From a virus: a DNA stretch of 64,000 bases. Below are positions 2,284-39,703 of this stretch, in pieces. The number at the start of each line of letters is the position of its first letter. Within the stretch, counting starts at the first letter, position 1. The DNA is taken from IMG/VR virus record IMGVR_UViG_3300032235_000792; one strand, 5' to 3'. The position numbers and the translations under genes are program-made. Below the pieces are notes generated by a model. The model was not told the DNA's origin. It saw only the letters and a program-made list of their open reading frames with translations, and ran no database searches.

Positions 2284-2311
2284 AGTTTCCTTTTTCTAAT
2301 ATAAAATCCGT

Positions 2312-2722
2312 TTATGCCTGCTTGTATCTGAATAAATCTTTTCTTCTTTTTAATATAGCCTTCTTTAAATCATCTGTCTTATCTGCTTCAGTTAGTGAAG
2401 CATTTGCTGTTTCAGTTAGCTTCATTAAAACAAAGTCATCATAGTCTTCAGGAACCATCTCGTCCATTTCTCTATTCTTCTTGCCCGCGAATTCATCAAA
2501 ATGCTGAAGTGCATGAATAGTATATTTGTAGCAAGCGTCTTCTGGTGAACACTTTGCATCACCTATATCGAATTTACCGCACCTAGCTATATTCAATAAA
2601 CTCTCAGAAATGTGATCTATTTCTTCACTGTCGACCTGAAATAAGATAGGCTCATTCCAGTCTATTTTGTTATTGAAATCACGTTCTATAATGTACTTTA
2701 TACACTGACTTATGCTCATCAT
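2312..2722 (-). CDS. hypothetical protein
   Basis: 136 aa ORF, GGAGG RBS. Confidence 0.65.
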   Translation of the reverse strand: MMSISQCIKYIIERDFNNKIDWNEPILFQVDSEEIDHISESLLNIARCGKFDIGDAKCSPEDACYKYTIHALQHFDEFAGKKNREMDEMVPEDYDDFVLMKLTETANASLTEADKTDDLKKAILKRRKDLFRYKQA

Positions 2723-32941: not shown

Positions 32942-33009
32942 AGTTATATATGATATCTGTTGTAGTTATACAAGCCATTGTATTTACGAGTTAGTCGAGG
33001 GTAAAAGAT

Positions 33010-33310
33010 AGGGTTTGGCCGCGAGCCCCATAGCCCCACTTCGTCCCCAACAGACCAACTGCCTGCCCATCGACAGACCAGCGCGCGGGTCCCAACAGAT
33101 CGGTCCACGCGTACCGAGCAATGTTAGGCCGCAACATTGCTCAGCGCGACAGGCCTGTTACTGGCCAACAGACTGTTTCCCTAGGGGGTTTTGAGGTGCC
33201 TGCTGGCCAACAGAGCTCCCCCGTTGGGCGGCGTAGCAGTGTCACAGACGTCTAGCTGCCAGCAGACCCGCTTAACAGACTGCTGGCGTAGGACCTGTGG
33301 ACTTAACAGA
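33010..33310. other. GC-rich non-coding element with clustered AACAGA motifs and hairpins
   Basis: six AACAGA copies plus degenerate ones on the plus strand, perfect 10-bp stem gagcaatgtt/aacattgctc (33116-33142), one 13-mer copy (33232-33244). Confidence 0.6.
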
Positions 33311-33535
33311 CTACTCTTCTAGCATCTTGTTGATGGCCAGAGCTGCTCTGACTTCTGCTAGTAGCTCATCGTCATCACTGGCATAGGACTCGTACTCCTC
33401 TAACAGCTCTTGATCTGTCATATTGCGCAGCCCCGGAAAGTTACCGCCATAGAGGATATAGTCTCTGAGTTCAAAACAGCCATACATGTCATCGAACAGT
33501 ACATCCATCAGCTTGTTTCTAGTAACTTCGTCCAT
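33311..33535 (-). CDS. acidic small protein (C-terminal INKMLEE)
   Basis: 74 aa, AAGGAG RBS. Confidence 0.7.
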   Translation of the reverse strand: MDEVTRNKLMDVLFDDMYGCFELRDYILYGGNFPGLRNMTDQELLEEYESYASDDDELLAEVRAALAINKMLEE

Positions 33536-33554
33536 ATTAGCTCCTTTATGGTTA

Positions 33555-33584
33555 AAGAAAAGGCCGGAGAGTTACTCCGGCCTT
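33555..33584 (-). terminator. intrinsic terminator
   Basis: AAGGCCGGAG-TAACT-CTCCGGCCTT followed by TTCTTT after family A gene. Confidence 0.75.
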
Positions 33585-33588
33585 GGAA

Positions 33589-34071
33589 CTAGCCTACTAA
33601 GTGACGTAGGTGCTCTGGGAGAGCGTCAACATTGATCTCTACTTTAGCTTCGGGCTTGATCTCTGCTAGTCTAGCATCAATCGCTTGTTGAACTTGTGTT
33701 TTAGTTTCAGCATCAGTAACCGTCTTGAGTAGAGCTTTAAGAGCTTTGATCTGAGCGTCACCAGAACCAGAGCGAGAACCTGGGTTTTTGGTGGTATAGC
33801 TCTGACCATTGTTGAACTGCGGGTTCTTTCTAATCCAGTTATCTAGTAGGCCAGAGACATACTTCTTAAGCTCGGAGTCAAAGGCATACTTATCACTAGC
33901 TTCGGCTGACATCTGGACTTGGCCAGAGCGGAAGCCAGCGACCAGCTTCTCTTTCATAGTATTCTTTTGCTCTGAAGTTATGATGTCGGACAGCACGACT
34001 TCACCGCCCAGCTCATAGTTAGGCACTACAGACATGACAACTTGAGTAACTGCATCTTTTTGACTAATCAT
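33589..34071 (-). CDS. paralogue family A protein
   Basis: AGFRSGQVQMSAEASDKYAFDSELKKY...KNPGSRSGSGD...LPEHLRHL. Confidence 0.9.
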   Translation of the reverse strand: MISQKDAVTQVVMSVVPNYELGGEVVLSDIITSEQKNTMKEKLVAGFRSGQVQMSAEASDKYAFDSELKKYVSGLLDNWIRKNPQFNNGQSYTTKNPGSRSGSGDAQIKALKALLKTVTDAETKTQVQQAIDARLAEIKPEAKVEINVDALPEHLRHLVG

Positions 34072-34341
34072 ACTAAACCCCTTTAGTAGCTAGCATTATT
34101 GCTAGTGATTAAATATAATATTTGTTAGAGTCCTTGAGTTAATAACTGACAGTTCATCATTTTAGGTGTCTGCACTGTCAAACCGCCCACCGGATACTAA
34201 TATGCCTAGTCCACGCTTGTTAGTCTATGTAAGACTTTTTTACAACCGTATTGGTTGATGTTAATATATAGAATCTGTTAAGGCGGGGGATGGCAGGCGT
34301 AGCAGTGTCACTCGGCCACTAGGCCGAGCGCACGCTGGAGG

Positions 34342-34545
34342 CTAGAACCCTTGGGAGGTGAAATCCAACTCTCCATCTTCTTCATCGTAACTATCTTCTA
34401 CATATACTTCTAGTGTATCTTCGTCACTGAACTCGGCATTCATATCATCTAAGTCTGCCTGTTCGATAGCATCTCGTATCTCTTCCTCAGTATCGATGTC
34501 GTCCTCAAAGTCCTCGTATGAATCGAATAAGTTCATGCTTCTCAT
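34342..34545 (-). CDS. very acidic small protein
   Basis: 67 aa, about 28 Asp/Glu and 2 Arg; AGGAG RBS. Confidence 0.7.
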   Translation of the reverse strand: MRSMNLFDSYEDFEDDIDTEEEIRDAIEQADLDDMNAEFSDEDTLEVYVEDSYDEEDGELDFTSQGF

Positions 34546-34601
34546 ATAACTCCTATGTTTATTTAGTTTTAAAGAAATGAGCCATCCATGGCTCGAATAA
34601 C

Positions 34602-34829
34602 TTAGGCACAGTACTCACGAAGACGCTTGTTGTACTTGATTCTTAAAGCTTCAGCCTCAGCTTTTAGCTCAGCCGCCTTATCATCAGAGCTCGTCTTCAT
34701 AGCGTCAGCGAGTTTATTCCAGTAGGCTGATTTGAACTTAGCCAGGTGCTGTTCATGAAACTCGATCGCTCTAGGATTCTGGATGTCTTCAACTCTAGTA
34801 ACACCATTACATTCTTTAGATTTAGTCAT
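34602..34829 (-). CDS. hypothetical protein
   Basis: 75 aa, GGAGG RBS, own promoter motif. Confidence 0.7.
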   Translation of the reverse strand: MTKSKECNGVTRVEDIQNPRAIEFHEQHLAKFKSAYWNKLADAMKTSSDDKAAELKAEAEALRIKYNKRLREYCA

Positions 34830-34904
34830 TTAACCCTCCCAAGGTTAGATCATCTACTAGATGATCATTTAATTATGATATATTATAGAATCTGTTGGAG
34901 ATAT

Positions 34905-35222
34905 CTACAGACAGGCAGCCAGCCATCTTATTGTATTCTCAATATCTTCTCTATCTTTGATGTAGTCTTTGCCATCATGACAACCACAGCGGCTAGACAC
35001 AACCATATCATCATCTATGTGTATCTGGCATGGTGGACACTCATCATTCTCATACAGCCATTCGCCAGTGAAGTCTTCAAACTCCGCTTGCTCGCTCTCA
35101 CTTAGATGGGAATAGTCTGGTACATTCTTAAGATATGAGTATGCATGATCACAATCCCAGTCATACCCAATCTCTTTGTCACTTTCCATGAATAGCTTTT
35201 TCAAATCACCAAGTGTTTTCAT
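34905..35222 (-). CDS. acidic Cys-containing hypothetical protein
   Basis: start re-called to MKTLGD after GGAGG. Confidence 0.65.
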   Translation of the reverse strand: MKTLGDLKKLFMESDKEIGYDWDCDHAYSYLKNVPDYSHLSESEQAEFEDFTGEWLYENDECPPCQIHIDDDMVVSSRCGCHDGKDYIKDREDIENTIRWLAACL

Positions 35223-35262
35223 GTTACCTCCAAAGTTAGAGCCATCCATGGCTCGAGTTTAG

Positions 35263-35616
35263 TTAGACTTTGCGGAACTGTAAGATACCGTAGTAGAGAC
35301 CGTTGCCAGAACCATCTTGCTCATAGAATAAGCTATAACCATAGTGCTTCATATATATCTCAATGGCTTCAAGTACACCATTAGTTTTACAGTTATCACC
35401 GAGCATCCAACTAACGAACTTGTCGCTCTCCTCCTTTTTGCCCCACAGTTCTTCATCGCTAAAATCATAGTAGACAACGATATCACTTGGGGCGAGATCA
35501 GCTTCATCACCAAGCGACGCCTCATCGTGGGTGATCACACTTAAGTTACCGAGCTTTGGGTAATAGTTGTAGTGGTTTAAGAACTTGCCGAGTGCACTTA
35601 TCATAACTTGATCCAT
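35263..35616 (-). CDS. hypothetical protein
   Basis: 117 aa, GGAGG RBS. Confidence 0.7.
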   Translation of the reverse strand: MDQVMISALGKFLNHYNYYPKLGNLSVITHDEASLGDEADLAPSDIVVYYDFSDEELWGKKEESDKFVSWMLGDNCKTNGVLEAIEIYMKHYGYSLFYEQDGSGNGLYYGILQFRKV

Positions 35617-35723
35617 AGTTGCCTCCGAGTTGGAGTCAGTCCGTGACTCGATTAATATTGTAATTATAAAAATATATAAAGTCTGTTAGAGTTTGTGTAG
35701 GTGTGAGCGGCGTAGCAGTGTCA

Positions 35724-35751
35724 AAATAATAGGTGGGGCTTTCGCCCCACC
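35724..35751 (-). terminator. intrinsic terminator with GAAA tetraloop
   Basis: GGTGGGGC-GAAA-GCCCCACC-TATTATTTT. Confidence 0.75.
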
Positions 35752-35759
35752 GTGGTGGC

Positions 35760-36248
35760 CTAGCCTAGCAGGTGGCGTAGGCTTTCAGGTATCAAGCTCG
35801 CATCGATCTCGATCTTAGGTTTCAACTCTTCAAGACGCTTATCGATCTCGACTTGGATGGTTGCCTTGACCGAAGGGTCGTTGACAGTACTCATCAATGC
35901 TCTCAGAGCTTTCAGCTTCTCGTCACCAGACCCGCTTCGTGATCCAGGATTCTTGGCTTGGTAAGTGTTGCCGCCGTTGAACTCAGGTGCCTTACGCAAC
36001 CAGTTGTTCAGTAGTCCGACACAGTACTTGCGGAGCTCGGAGTCGAAGGCATACTTGTCACTAGCCTCGCTCGACATTTGGATTTGACCCGAGCGGAACC
36101 CAGCGATCAGCATCGCCACAGCGTTCTCCTTGTCACTCACGGTGAACACCTCACTCACAGGTGTCTCGCCATTGAGAGTGTAGTTAACACCACGCTTAGA
36201 AAGAGTAGCTAACACGATAGAGACAGTTGCTTGACGTTGATTAACCAT
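35760..36248 (-). CDS. paralogue family A protein
   Basis: very similar to 37372-37857; start re-called to MVNQRQ after GGAGG. Confidence 0.9.
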   Translation of the reverse strand: MVNQRQATVSIVLATLSKRGVNYTLNGETPVSEVFTVSDKENAVAMLIAGFRSGQIQMSSEASDKYAFDSELRKYCVGLLNNWLRKAPEFNGGNTYQAKNPGSRSGSGDEKLKALRALMSTVNDPSVKATIQVEIDKRLEELKPKIEIDASLIPESLRHLLG

Positions 36249-36412
36249 ACGAGATCCTCCCAAGGATTAAGCGCGCACGACATGTGAGCACTATTAGTTA
36301 ATTAATATAATTAAATAAGTTATATATTTAATTATAAATAATATTAAAGTCTGTTAAATTATATAGCGGCGTAGCAGTGTCAGTAGGCCTTGCGGCCTAC
36401 TGCACCAGATAA

Positions 36413-36688
36413 CTAGACGACCAGTCCTTGGTCTTGGAGTTGTTGGTCAAGTGTCTTACCATCGTAGTTGAGTAAGTCACTACCATCGTTGAGATCAGTG
36501 AACATATCCTGCTTGACCTCGCTATAGGTCTGCACACACTCGGGATCCTCGTGGCACATGAACCACAGTTGACCGTTGATGCTGTAGACTTCGAAGTCGT
36601 AGATAGCGTGGTTACCGATGTGGACACAGCCGACATGGTTAGATTCAAAGTCTTCGTGGTTAAAGTTAGATGGATCGAAAGTTGTCAT
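36413..36688 (-). CDS. acidic hypothetical protein
   Basis: start re-called to MTTFD after GGAGG. Confidence 0.65.
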   Translation of the reverse strand: MTTFDPSNFNHEDFESNHVGCVHIGNHAIYDFEVYSINGQLWFMCHEDPECVQTYSEVKQDMFTDLNDGSDLLNYDGKTLDQQLQDQGLVV

Positions 36689-36757
36689 GATTACCTCCAA
36701 GATAGAGAGTCGTCCATGACTCAGTTAATTTATATTGATTGTTAAGATTTGTTAGGG

Positions 36758-37027
36758 CTACGCTTCGGTATCCCAGCGGAAGAGTAGCTCGTTGTACTTA
36801 GCTTCGCTGATCACCACCCAACTCCATGTGTTAAGGTAGCGGACCGCATGATTCTTCTTGCCAGTCATGCGCAGCGACTTGCCGTACATTTGGGACTTGG
36901 CTCGCTCTTTGATGACACCAGACTCTTTATGGCCGCTCAGCGAGTGCGACTCATACTCGTAAGAGTAAGGGTTGTTGTCAGTGGCGTCGATAGCACGGAC
37001 GAGCTTAATGAGTGACAATGATTTCAT
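36758..37027 (-). CDS. hypothetical protein
   Basis: 89 aa, GGAGG RBS. Confidence 0.7.
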   Translation of the reverse strand: MKSLSLIKLVRAIDATDNNPYSYEYESHSLSGHKESGVIKERAKSQMYGKSLRMTGKKNHAVRYLNTWSWVVISEAKYNELLFRWDTEA

Positions 37028-37184
37028 AGTACCTCCAAGTTGGAGTCAGTCCGTGACTCGATTAATATAATAAATAATTTTAATTTTATTTAATTATAAA
37101 TAATATTAAAGTCTGTTAAATTATATAGCGGCGTAGCAGTGTCAATAGGTAAGCGGGCCATCATGGCCCGCATAACCTCGGAGA

Positions 37185-37277
37185 TCACTCAGCATCTTCG
37201 CTAAGCAATTCATAATCATCGTAATCAAGATAGCTTAAGTTATAATCATCATCTTCATTCATATTTATATCGTTCAT
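37185..37277 (-). CDS. 30-aa acidic micro-ORF (not in ORF track)
   Basis: MNDINMNEDDDYNLSYLDYDDYELLSEDAE with GGGGG RBS. Confidence 0.45.
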   Translation of the reverse strand: MNDINMNEDDDYNLSYLDYDDYELLSEDAE

Positions 37278-37334
37278 AATTTCCCCCATTAGTTATATCC
37301 GCTATTAAGTACCAAGATAGACATCTTAATACTT

Positions 37335-37362
37335 AATAGAAGGGAGGGACTTTCGTCCCTCC
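37335..37362 (-). terminator. intrinsic terminator with GAAA tetraloop
   Basis: GGAGGGAC-GAAA-GTCCCTCC-CTTCTATT. Confidence 0.7.
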
Positions 37363-37371
37363 AGTTAACCT

Positions 37372-37857
37372 CTAGAGTAGGTGGCGTAAGCTCTCAGGGA
37401 TCAGATCAGCATTGATCTCGATCTTAGGCTTAAGCTCTTCGATTCGCTTATCGATCTCAGATTGGATCGTAGCCTTGGTAGTAGGATCACTTACCTTAGA
37501 CATCAGAGCTCGTAGGGCTTTCAGCTTCTCATCACCAGATCCCGTTCTAGATCCAGGGTTCTTAGCTGTATAAGCATTACCACCGTTGAACTCAGGAGCC
37601 TTGCGGATCCAGTTGTTAACCAGACCAACCACATATTTCTTAAGTTCAGAGTCGAAGGCATACTTATCAGAAGCCTCAGAGGACATTTGTATCTGTCCAG
37701 ATCGGAAGCCCGCGACCAGCTTGTTGACAGCTTGTTCCTTGTCAGTTACCGTTAGGACATCTGCGATACATTGCTCACCGTTTAGGTTGTAGTCGATACC
37801 GCGCTCAGAGAGAACAGATAAGATAACAGATACAGTTGCTTGACGTTGAGATACCAT
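37372..37857 (-). CDS. paralogue family A protein
   Basis: MVSQRQATVS...GLVNNWIRKAPEFNGG...IPESLRHLL. Confidence 0.9.
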   Translation of the reverse strand: MVSQRQATVSVILSVLSERGIDYNLNGEQCIADVLTVTDKEQAVNKLVAGFRSGQIQMSSEASDKYAFDSELKKYVVGLVNNWIRKAPEFNGGNAYTAKNPGSRTGSGDEKLKALRALMSKVSDPTTKATIQSEIDKRIEELKPKIEINADLIPESLRHLL

Positions 37858-37910
37858 TGAGAACTCCTTGGTTATGAGTCATCCGTAACTCGGTGGTTAA
37901 TTATAAAAAT

Positions 37911-37925
37911 TTATAAAGTCTGTTA
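37911..37925 (-). promoter_or_regulatory. phage-specific promoter motif TAACAGA-w4-ATAT (representative of about 16 copies)
   Basis: recurs 15-60 nt upstream of minus-strand RBSs; see findings for positions. Confidence 0.7.
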
Positions 37926-38420
37926 AAAAATAGGGCCGGGTAACTTTATTATTTATATAAGTATTGTTAAAATCTGTTGGATCTGGTACCCCACGAACTC
38001 TGGGAGGACACTTCGCCATAAAATAGGGCCCACTGGCTTCTACCCCATAATAGGCAAACTCACCAGGTACCACTACTTCAATTTTTATATATTATTTTTT
38101 ATCTAACAATAAGGCCAGAAATAATACCCACTGCCGTACCACTTCTCATCTTGGGTCATCTCAAACTTGAACACACCTAAATTCTGAAACACGCGTAACA
38201 ACCGCATTCTTTCCTGATAATCATTATAATTATTCTGAAAACTCATCTTCACCCCAACCTCACATATCGAGCTCAATAAGACCTAACCTATATAAGGTGA
38301 ACCACATAGATATCTCACAATAAAAATCGCCATACCACTCGTCAAACATCTAACTCACCAAGCCCTAACTTCGACCAAAGCATGACAATGAGATTAAACT
38401 TTAACACGATACCATCTTGC

Positions 38421-38690
38421 CTACTCTTCGCTGTCATCTTGAAACCTCTCGGCTAATACAAATCTTCTGTTGCATATCACATTGTTCCCTTCGTCCCAAA
38501 ACGTCAACACCACACCATAAACTTCCTGAGGGTTACTAAACTCGAAATTACCTAACCTATTGATCGTCAACCTAGGCTTTCTTTCCCATGTCACTATATA
38601 ACTCGTGGGCTCTAACAAACCTAGACCCTTCAATACATCGAGTGTATCTATGAGCGTCATAAAATCATTTAACCCTATATAACTTCGCAT
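38421..38690 (-). CDS. hypothetical protein
   Basis: 89 aa, GGAG RBS. Confidence 0.5.
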   Translation of the reverse strand: MRSYIGLNDFMTLIDTLDVLKGLGLLEPTSYIVTWERKPRLTINRLGNFEFSNPQEVYGVVLTFWDEGNNVICNRRFVLAERFQDDSEE

Positions 38691-39393
38691 ACCAGCGCAA
38701 TTCTCCCATCCATTCTATAAACTCATTGAACGATGTTGCTCTATCTATGAGATCTAACCGTCTCAACATGATGAACACGTCTCTAACTGTCATAACCTCG
38801 TGCCAATCGTCTGCTTGCTGATTCACGGCTCTACATCCTTAACCACACCGATGCACCCGACGCTACCCGCGCCATCCGGTAGCTTGTTTATCTCGTACAT
38901 ATCTTCTGTCGAAAATATCCATATCATATCCAACTGGTCGATATCGTTAAATATTCGCCCCAATATCAACCACATTATCTTTCTGGCCTCAAAATCTTTC
39001 ATATATAGTTATTATATAGCCAATCTGCCCCAAGTCATCTCGAGTTACGCGCAGACCAGAAAGGCCGATTAAATTGAGCGAATTAAGGATCTTCAGGATC
39101 GGGCATAACGCCTCGAGATCACGGCCAGCAAATACGCGCGCACTATGATGTAGTTGTGACTTATTTGTCACGTGATTTCCGATCAAGGTAGATGACGACC
39201 CACGGTGCGGCCAGTGTTGCGACAAGTTGTGCGCCAGCGAGCATAACTCGCAGTAGTTCATAAGTGGTCATTTAAGACCCCCATCTTTATTAAGACAGTA
39301 ATGACGCGGTAGAGCTTGCGTTTATCTTCGAAAGGTAAGCTTAGGAACGCGTTTGAGCAACGAAACATGTTCGCTCTAGTTCTCAGAGCATGT

Positions 39394-39594
39394 CTAGTAG
39401 GTTTCACGACTGTCTCCGTTTATGATCGCTTGATAGATCTTCATTTGAAATGAATTGCACATAGTATAGTATTCTTTCGCTGTTATGACACGAAGCTTGT
39501 ATAGGGAGTACAACATTAGACCATGACGAGAGAATGTCTCGTGGATGGATTTAGCGTTATCAGAGCAGGTAAGTAAGTATTCTTGATAGTTCAT
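39394..39594 (-). CDS. hypothetical protein
   Basis: 66 aa, first ORF divergent from the sigma gene. Confidence 0.5.
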   Translation of the reverse strand: MNYQEYLLTCSDNAKSIHETFSRHGLMLYSLYKLRVITAKEYYTMCNSFQMKIYQAIINGDSRETY

Positions 39595-39703
39595 ATAGTT
39601 CTTTTAAGTTATCAACAACTTATGCGGTAGGGGCCCCCTAACCGCTTCGCGGGACATTAAAAATGCTTGATAATATTATACTATGTTACAGTATAATAAA
39701 TGC

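Follow-up and report, generated by a model that had tools for sequence, protein, structure and literature searches.

An ANGGAX-loop hairpin in the early block of uncultured tailed phages as a candidate site for host CsrA

CsrA is a master post-transcriptional regulator, and the ways in which lytic phages deal with it are, to our knowledge, almost unexplored. Published work mostly reports csrA genes carried by some phages and plasmids (PMC7366521). The high-affinity site of CsrA/RsmE proteins is an ANGGAX hexaloop placed directly on a stem, in which A, G, G and A are specifically recognised while N and X are free; the loop of hcnA reads ACGGAU (PMC4005645). The present analysis concerns six short hairpins with loops of this type in IMG/VR virus record IMGVR_UViG_3300032235_000792, a 64 kb stretch of DNA (hereafter the window) from a large uncultured tailed phage of a lake, which is presumed to be lytic. 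Comparison with related phages indicates that the hairpin is a family-wide, early-block-specific RNA element with a selected ANGGAX loop. The best single explanation, which is held tentatively and at slightly less than even confidence, is that a host protein of the CsrA family binds the hairpins, repressing early translation or being titrated by them.

The phage sites resemble the CsrA/RsmE-repressed leaders (Pseudomonas hcnA; E. coli glgC, cstA and pgaA) in having a short hairpin with an ANGGAX loop directly on its stem, a second GGA within the Shine-Dalgarno (SD) sequence at bridging distance, and a position just upstream of the start codon. One of them, at 37891, carries ACGGAU, identical to hcnA. 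Unlike those leaders, the phage site is a copied module attached to six separate genes in what is probably a lytic phage, and phage relatives carry the same hairpin at gene ends too; moreover, the hairpin GGA of hcnA is the SD itself, whereas the phage hairpin lies upstream of the SD. The sponge RNAs CsrB/CsrC and RsmX/Y/Z likewise pack many GGA-loop hairpins on abundant transcripts, but the phage hairpins sit on protein-coding messenger RNAs (mRNAs), one or two per gene, with no dedicated non-coding RNA. Another point of comparison is provided by the promoter-early stem-loop cassettes of T4-type phages, which Arbiol et al. reportedly described in 2010 and in which small novel early genes are said to be flanked, as here, by a repeated promoter and stem-loop in a shuffled array. 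The boxes of the window differ from T4 early promoters, however, and its stem-loop, rather than being a terminator only, belongs to the leader and has a loop under selection. A scan of positions 33000-39700 against Rfam gave no match at E<=5 that covers the hairpins.

Should the hairpins bind CsrA, a phage without a detected csrA of its own would wire its early-gene block to the Csr state of the host, or drain CsrA through its early mRNAs. Should the binder be something other than CsrA, the conserved ANGGAX hairpin would still be a new, uncatalogued viral RNA motif with its loop under selection. The evidence spans an entire, diverse and uncultured phage family.

Six hairpins in a leftward gene array

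Leftward from a divergent transcription point near 39.65 kb runs a dense series of small open reading frames (ORFs) without database matches, which, judging from the gene layout, is probably the early block. The six hairpins, of 16-17 nucleotides (nt) and with four distinct sequences, lie between 34579 and 37891 on the minus strand, i.e., the sense strand of the leftward genes that carry them. All had been located by a first-pass annotation of the sequence, whose positions and strand proved exact. Read leftward, the first is GAGUUACGGAUGACUC (37891-37876, minus strand), which folds as GAGUUA-CGGA-UGACUC, with ACGGAU as its loop and closing pair, in the leader of a conserved early protein of 161 amino acids (37372-37857; SD GGAG at 37867-37864, AUG at 37857). 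The hairpin GAGUCACGGACUGACUC, or GAGUCA-CGGAC-UGACUC, occurs twice on the same strand, at 37059-37043 in the leader of an ORF of 89 amino acids (36758-37027; SD GGAGG at 37036-37032) and at 35649-35633 in the leader of an ORF of 117 amino acids (35263-35616; SD GGAGG at 35626-35622), and the two sites have in common a 45-nt repeat that is 91% identical. Between them, GAGUCAUGGACGACUC (36722-36707, minus strand) presents an ANGGAX hexaloop, GAGUC-AUGGAC-GACUC, in the leader of an ORF of 91 amino acids (36413-36688; SD GGAGG at 36698-36694).

The fourth sequence, GAGCCAUGGAUGGCUC or GAGCCA-UGGA-UGGCUC, is also present twice on the minus strand. At 35254-35239 it is intercistronic, 8 nt past the stop codon of ORF 35263-35616, and precedes a Cys-rich ORF of 105 amino acids (34905-35222; SD GGAGG at 35231-35227). 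At 34594-34579 it begins 7 nt past the stop codon of ORF 34602-34829, is followed by AUUUCUUUAAAA, and stands 25 nt before the SD (GGAG, 34553-34550) of an acidic ORF of 67 amino acids (34342-34545). A possible seventh and weaker member, GACCA-AGGAC-UGGUC (36433-36419, minus strand), occupies the final codons of ORF 36413-36688, before the terminator of that ORF and before box A, a repeated 15-mer described below; its stem has only 5 base pairs (bp), and it is missed by R1, the covariance model built for the hairpin.

From the 3′ end of the hairpin to the GGA of the SD, the gap is 6, 6, 7, 8, 8 and 25 nt across the six sites, in agreement with the earlier reading that five hairpins lie 6-8 nt before a GGAGG/GGAG SD and one 25 nt before. 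The loop GGA is separated from the SD GGA by 16-17 nt at five sites and by 34 nt at one, so that the second GGA proposed as a bridging partner is indeed in place. Written with the closing pair, the loops are AUGGAU, ACGGAU, AUGGAC and ACGGAC; all six sites fit the published ANGGAX hexaloop on a stem, as the first-pass annotation had supposed for a CsrA-type ANGGA loop (PMC4005645). Both the window sites and the family pattern fit the extended CANGGANG consensus too.

The stems are of 5-6 bp, and the energies of the hairpins folded alone span -3.5 to -7.8 kcal/mol, with -3.5 kcal/mol at 37891, -5.7 at 37059, -5.2 at 36722 and -7.8 at 35254. Folded in context, only three sites, 37891 among them, have the hairpin as their minimum-free-energy structure. 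At 37059 a rival CUCCA/UGGAG helix is able to cover the SD, and at 36722 the in-context minimum-free-energy fold is a GUCAUGG/UCAUGAC helix over the start codon. The alternative folds thus pair either the 3′ arm and the next bases (CUCYA) with UGGAG of the SD, or GUCAUGG with the start-codon region. A pseudoknot in which the loop GGA pairs with a UCC further downstream is feasible only at the two GAGUCA-CGGAC copies and was dismissed as a general feature.

For the pattern GAGYYAYGGA, 7 occurrences were counted in the window, where 0.6 would be expected and none of 100 shuffles gave more than 3; the occurrence outside the six hairpins (42320, plus strand, within an ORF) has no complementary arm. 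Generic GGA-loop hairpins show no enrichment in the window (103 vs about 137 in shuffles). What is special is this one hairpin family and its clustering, not GGA-loop hairpins generally. Applied unfiltered to every position of the 64 kb, model R1 returned the six sites (25.1 bits at 37891, 27.6 bits at 35254 and 29.6 bits at 34594) and one terminator at 37171-37153 only.

That terminator (minus strand) reads GCGGGCC-AUGAU-GGCCCGC, and a similar one at L122:14170-14188 in a related phage reads GCGGGAC-AUGAU-GUCCCGC. Both lie upstream of box A, their AUGAU loop is CAUGGAUG minus one G, and they could be degenerate relics of this hairpin family. Far from the early array, a weak A/U-stem hairpin, AUAAA-CGGAU-UUUAU (2301-2315, minus strand), stands 10 nt before an AAGGAAA SD and may be an unrelated chance ANGGA hairpin.

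In the window alignment, G-A-G, A, G-G-A, G and C-U-C are invariant. The stem changes had been taken as covariation, and pairing is indeed kept, with one truly compensatory change (C-G to U-A) and one change from C-G to U-G; from the window alone, the case for covariation is thin. The invariance of A-Y-GGA is likewise not statistically compelling within the window, because there are only four distinct sequences, and shared descent could explain it (p ~0.3 by our own estimate).

Copies in related phages and selection on the loop

A covariance-model scan of related phages, suggested by the first-pass annotation as a check, yielded further copies, with R1 matching four times in L012, three times each in L122 and L053, and also in L035, L119, L027 and L120. 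The leaders of L122 hold GGCUCA-CGGA-UGAGUC twice and GACUCA-AGGA-UGAGUC once, each 7-9 nt before GGAGG, and further leader copies are found in L035, L053, L119, L012, L055, L121 and L133. In the leader copies of relatives, the loop is 16-22 nt from the SD GGA. One CsrA dimer reportedly bridges about 10-63 nt, with an optimum near 18, according to work by Mercante et al. in 2009, and the spacing observed in the window and in the relatives would fit such bridging of two sites. Exact matches to the 17-mer hairpin in viral contigs (eight loci, L001-L008) fell in coding sequence of unrelated contigs and were discarded as chance matches.

Across whole records of relatives, R1 matches are confined to the early block, where G006 has a cluster of four spanning 2.2 kb and G007 a pair spanning 0.5 kb. 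About nine GGA-loop hairpins are packed into 3.3 kb of L035, six of them within 2.3 kb directly upstream of box A, compared with six or seven over an equal length of the window. Many copies in relatives stand at the end of the preceding gene, upstream of box A, on long G+C-rich stems such as GCGGAGCA-AGGA-UGCUCCGC.

Of 164 hairpins with an AYGGAY loop, 27 lay in leaders, compared with 9 of 157 hairpins bearing the antisense loop and 5-8% of those with any of seven control cores, and the leader tetraloops UGGA and CGGA together number 17 vs 5 for their complements. Among strong hairpins (6 bp or more, 3 or more of them G-C) within 2.5 kb of box A, 44 A.GGA loops were counted in sense and 7 in antisense, while the best control core gives 28 vs 7. 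There, A-UGGA-U is the third commonest loop, behind UUCG and GAAA, and the A.GGA count is comparable with those of UUCG and GNRA. Considering all pre-SD hairpin loops, GGA is about average (45 occurrences), and enrichment is limited to good stems with a loop of the A-N-GGA-N class.

A stem-anchored test, in which stems were picked without reference to the loop and which is less circular than the other counts, found an ANGGAN loop in 8 of 12 GGAGC..GCUCC stems, 7 of 14 GACUC..GAGUC stems and 3 of 6 GACCC..GGGUC stems. In these loops, position N is taken by A, C or U and position X by A, U or C, never by G; A and GGA are fixed, with no variants one step away. Among phages, stem pairs 3-5 change in a compensatory manner and the loop-adjacent C-G and A-U pairs are fixed, in sequences that were picked as hairpins and are fully paired by construction. 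A fixed A and GGA, with N and X variable on changing stems, is the signature that would be expected of a loop-reading protein with CsrA-like specificity.

The position of the hairpin is itself widely used. Most of the 71 distinct leaders of an early gene family encoding a 162-amino-acid protein have a hairpin 6-12 nt before the SD, with typical loops of AUAAA, AAUUAA or AAUGAC. Since family leaders carry these other loops, the hairpin slot is general to the family and GGA is not required in it.

Candidate readers of the loop

The apex of the stem-loop, CA-NGGA-YG, is a near-ideal predicted site for the CsrA/RsmA family, and with the SD GGA 16-17 nt downstream it would form a two-site arrangement bridged by one CsrA dimer. 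Host CsrA, once bound, would occlude the SD and tie early-protein synthesis to the free CsrA pool, and abundant early transcripts with many sites could draw CsrA off host mRNAs. From the sequences we infer that the element functions as RNA, that CsrA is its binder, and in which direction it acts. A bolder version, which we consider quite unlikely, holds that the early transcripts together are a viral CsrB analogue, whose ANGGAX hairpins at the 5′ and 3′ ends of many abundant early mRNAs would soak up host CsrA within minutes, so that carbon metabolism and mRNA stability would be reprogrammed and early-protein synthesis held back until CsrA is saturated. Host takeover would then be achieved by mRNA structure and not by a protein.

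A phage-encoded CsrA-like protein, one of the options raised by the first-pass annotation, found no support: PF02599 had no match at E<=1 in ten records of relatives, including G001 (100% complete), G004 (93%) and G007 (91%), and a search of the 64 kb window with a query sequence and a motif pattern found nothing CsrA-like. Because csrA is absent from the relatives examined, a host factor is the more likely binder, and host CsrA would be the simplest one. No usable host could be derived from the ClpA-like ATPase (identity of about 41% with PA5oct-type Pseudomonas phages and of 38% with an Acinetobacter phage), from an NrdA atlas search, which returned viral clusters only, or from the sigma factor.

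One phage candidate for CsrA, encoded at L141:4860-5066 in G001, gained no support, as it had no Pfam match at E<=10 and only a chance PDB profile hit; its model gave no Foldseek match at E<=0.001, and the best VIA match was to YkuJ (Z 4.8), with no CsrA chain listed, although the predicted local distance difference test (pLDDT) score of the model is only 71. The protein (WWLGKKKPFIINDEYEIKLLFIDKINNSAKIEITN) heads the helicase operon and belongs to a strongly conserved family of 62-70 amino acids with at least 150 metagenome homologues at E<=0.01. Its predicted fold (pLDDT 71) consists of an N-terminal helix and a four-stranded sheet.

Several observations weigh against a role of CsrA. The protein is unevenly distributed among bacteria (PMC7366521). 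The R1 hairpin was not found anywhere in the nearest complete relative, G001, nor in G004; the leaders of G001 hold hairpins with unrelated A/U-rich loops at equivalent positions, and none of the 71 distinct leaders of the 162-amino-acid family outside the window has a GGA loop. The gene-end copies of relatives fit titration or protection, SD bridging being impossible there. At three sites of the window, alternative folds pair the loop GGA or cover the SD, and the window holds four distinct sequences with a single compensatory pair. Finally, only exact duplicates were removed from the enrichment counts given above, which near-identical contigs may inflate.

The loop may instead be read by another RNA-binding protein or a ribonuclease, likeliest an early phage protein, that processes, stabilises or shuts off early mRNAs, the likeness to CsrA being convergent. 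The hairpins are confined to the early block and patchy among phages, as an accessory phage module would be, they stand at leaders and gene ends like processing or protection sites, and the ten ORFs of the array without Pfam or PHROG match leave room for candidates; selection on A and GGA demands a loop reader and names none. Yet no candidate protein emerged, no early ORF of the window is consistently common to the hairpin-bearing relatives, the universal 162-amino-acid early protein is also present in relatives without hairpins, and the eight-position match to the CsrA/RsmE consensus (CANGGANG) would be a notable coincidence, all of which leaves such a reader rather unlikely. A purely structural hairpin, i.e., a 5′ or intercistronic stabiliser, an insulator of the translation start region, or a device that sequesters the anti-SD-like CUC(Y)A from UGGAG, would make the loop incidental and its spread a matter of cassette duplication or exchange. 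That a hairpin 6-12 nt before the SD, with any loop, is the rule in the phage family agrees with this proposal, as do the non-GGA hairpins in the slot within the window (e.g., at 34866-34848), the 91% identity of the 45-nt modules at 35649 and 37059, the CUCYA/UGGAG alternative helix that shows up in folds, and the single compensatory change of the window. We judge it unlikely nonetheless, in that distant phages keep the loop on stems of unrelated sequence, varying N and X but neither A nor GGA, and ANGGA loops exceed all control cores with a strong sense-strand bias. UUCG and GNRA loops, which occur in the same regions, are known for their thermodynamic stability, whereas ANGGAN is not known as such a loop.

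It is also conceivable that an exposed SD-like loop recruits 30S, as a standby site or STAB-SD-type stabiliser, or is the target of a T4 RegB-like GGAG endonuclease. GGA is the SD core, the AAGGAA and AAGGAU loops of relatives can pair with five anti-SD bases, and the structural genes have a distant kinship with those of SPO1-like phages, a group in which 5′ polypurine stabilisers are known. Very little credence can be given to this idea, since the base after GGA is never G in about 25 strong members, so that GGAG/GGAGG is avoided, and the window loops UGGAU, CGGAU, CGGAC and UGGAC give only three complementary bases. A T4 RegB target (GGAG) was set aside on the same footing, the base after GGA being U, C or A in all window copies and never G in strong family members. 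Equally improbable in our estimation is an element acting at the DNA level, either as an operator, its imperfect palindrome bound by a dimeric DNA-binding protein, or as a site of recombination where cassettes meet. The inverted repeats do stand at cassette junctions, four of them just downstream of promoter-like boxes, but the half-sites change together in a way that keeps pairing, for which a protein operator has no need, the asymmetric loop is mostly sense-oriented (44 vs 7, and 17 vs 5 in leaders), and two copies have no nearby promoter.

Other familiar RNA elements were considered and rejected. Intrinsic terminators are contradicted by the finding that, among the six, only 34594 and 36722 scored terminator-like on the minus strand; 34594 alone has a U-rich-like tail, interrupted (AUUUCUUUAAAA), 36722 runs into UCUAUCUU and the SD, and the four remaining hairpins are followed by CAACUY, UAACUUU or AUAACC and then the SD. 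The YGGA(Y) loops are not the GNRA-like pentaloop of a lambda-type nut site and nothing resembling boxA precedes them, although an N-like protein was not searched for. RNase III sites of the T7 or SP82 type have a duplex of about 20 bp or more, whereas the stems here have only 5-6 bp.

Cassette architecture and the surrounding genome

The hairpins belong to a modular early-gene cassette, in which a terminator-like hairpin is followed by box A (TGACACTGCTACGCC), box B (AACAGAYT-TATA), an A/T-rich spacer, the hairpin, YAACYY, GGAGG and ATG. Box A is an invariant 15-mer with five copies on the minus strand (37144-37130, 36382-36368, 35723-35709, 34310-34296 and 33244-33230), each of which comes after a terminator-like hairpin and delimits a cassette. 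It is no ordinary sigma-70 promoter, because it lacks a -10 box at constant spacing. Copies of box A, 2-5 per contig, occur in many IMG/VR phage contigs that are divergent and differ widely in G+C, and the contigs that bear it have conserved proteins in common with the window. Box B (AACAGAYTY-TATAWAT, minus strand) is found within 34271-37978 at 37978, 37924, 37117, 36355, 35687, 34896 and 34279, with a degenerate version before the 36722 hairpin, and sits 15-45 nt upstream of four of the hairpins. It is promoter-like and may serve as the promoter of the cassette; in relatives, ACAGACTCGATATA-type boxes occur at its position. No promoter-like box precedes the two GAGCCA hairpins, which are intercistronic and placed 7-8 nt past the preceding stop codon, and the six hairpins therefore cannot all be 5′-terminal structures such as stabilisers of the ompA type.

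Two other leaders of the array carry unrelated hairpins in the same slot. One of these is the non-GGA hairpin GAUCAUCUAGUAGAUGAUC (34866-34848, minus strand), in the equivalent position before UAACCUUGGGAGG and ORF 34602-34829, from which it follows that the slot can hold loops other than GGA. Between hairpin and SD, the spacer reads UAACUUU, CAACUU or CAACUC (35227-35238, 37032-37042 and 35622-35632, minus strand) and, in relatives, CAACUA, ACUUAAC or UAACUAA; we take it to resemble the 'epsilon' translational enhancer of T7 gene 10, UUAACUUUA.

Elsewhere, the window encodes a tail sheath, baseplate proteins, NrdA/NrdB, ThyX, an ATP-dependent DNA ligase, a ClpA/Lon-like ATPase and one tRNA-Met, and its rightward block is headed by an RpoD-like sigma factor with regions 1.2, 2 and 3 only. 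In its structural genes, the window shows a remote relationship to SPO1-like phages. The IMG/VR relatives are of 150-197 kb, and G001 (165.8 kb) is rated complete. Searches for cultured relatives, by megablast with the region and by tblastn with the sheath protein, a 274-amino-acid virion protein and the 161-amino-acid early protein, gave remote hits or none. A single-protein scan of viral contigs and a scan of genome contigs found no closer relatives, an alignment scan of viral contigs returned the G001 group only, and a metagenome scan returned only loci of 37% identity. This left no orthologous hairpins for a comparison between close relatives.

None of the ten ORFs examined in and beside the hairpin array has a Pfam or PHROG match. 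The G+C content is 42-45% across 32-40 kb and about 35% in the remaining window, a compositional island that could reflect cassette exchange between phages or a different constraint on its genes. The conserved early protein of 160-162 amino acids has three paralogues in the window (37372-37857, 35760-36248 and 33589-34071, minus strand), with the motifs LRKYVVGLVNNWLRK and KNPGSRxGSG and no Pfam or PHROG match. One to three copies of it adjoin the 15-mer box A in essentially every related contig examined, which makes it a hallmark of the family. Two small early proteins, one of 67 amino acids (34342-34545) and one of 34 amino acids (37185-37289, minus strand), are very acidic, with many D, E and Y residues, and recall DNA-mimic anti-restriction proteins in their composition alone.

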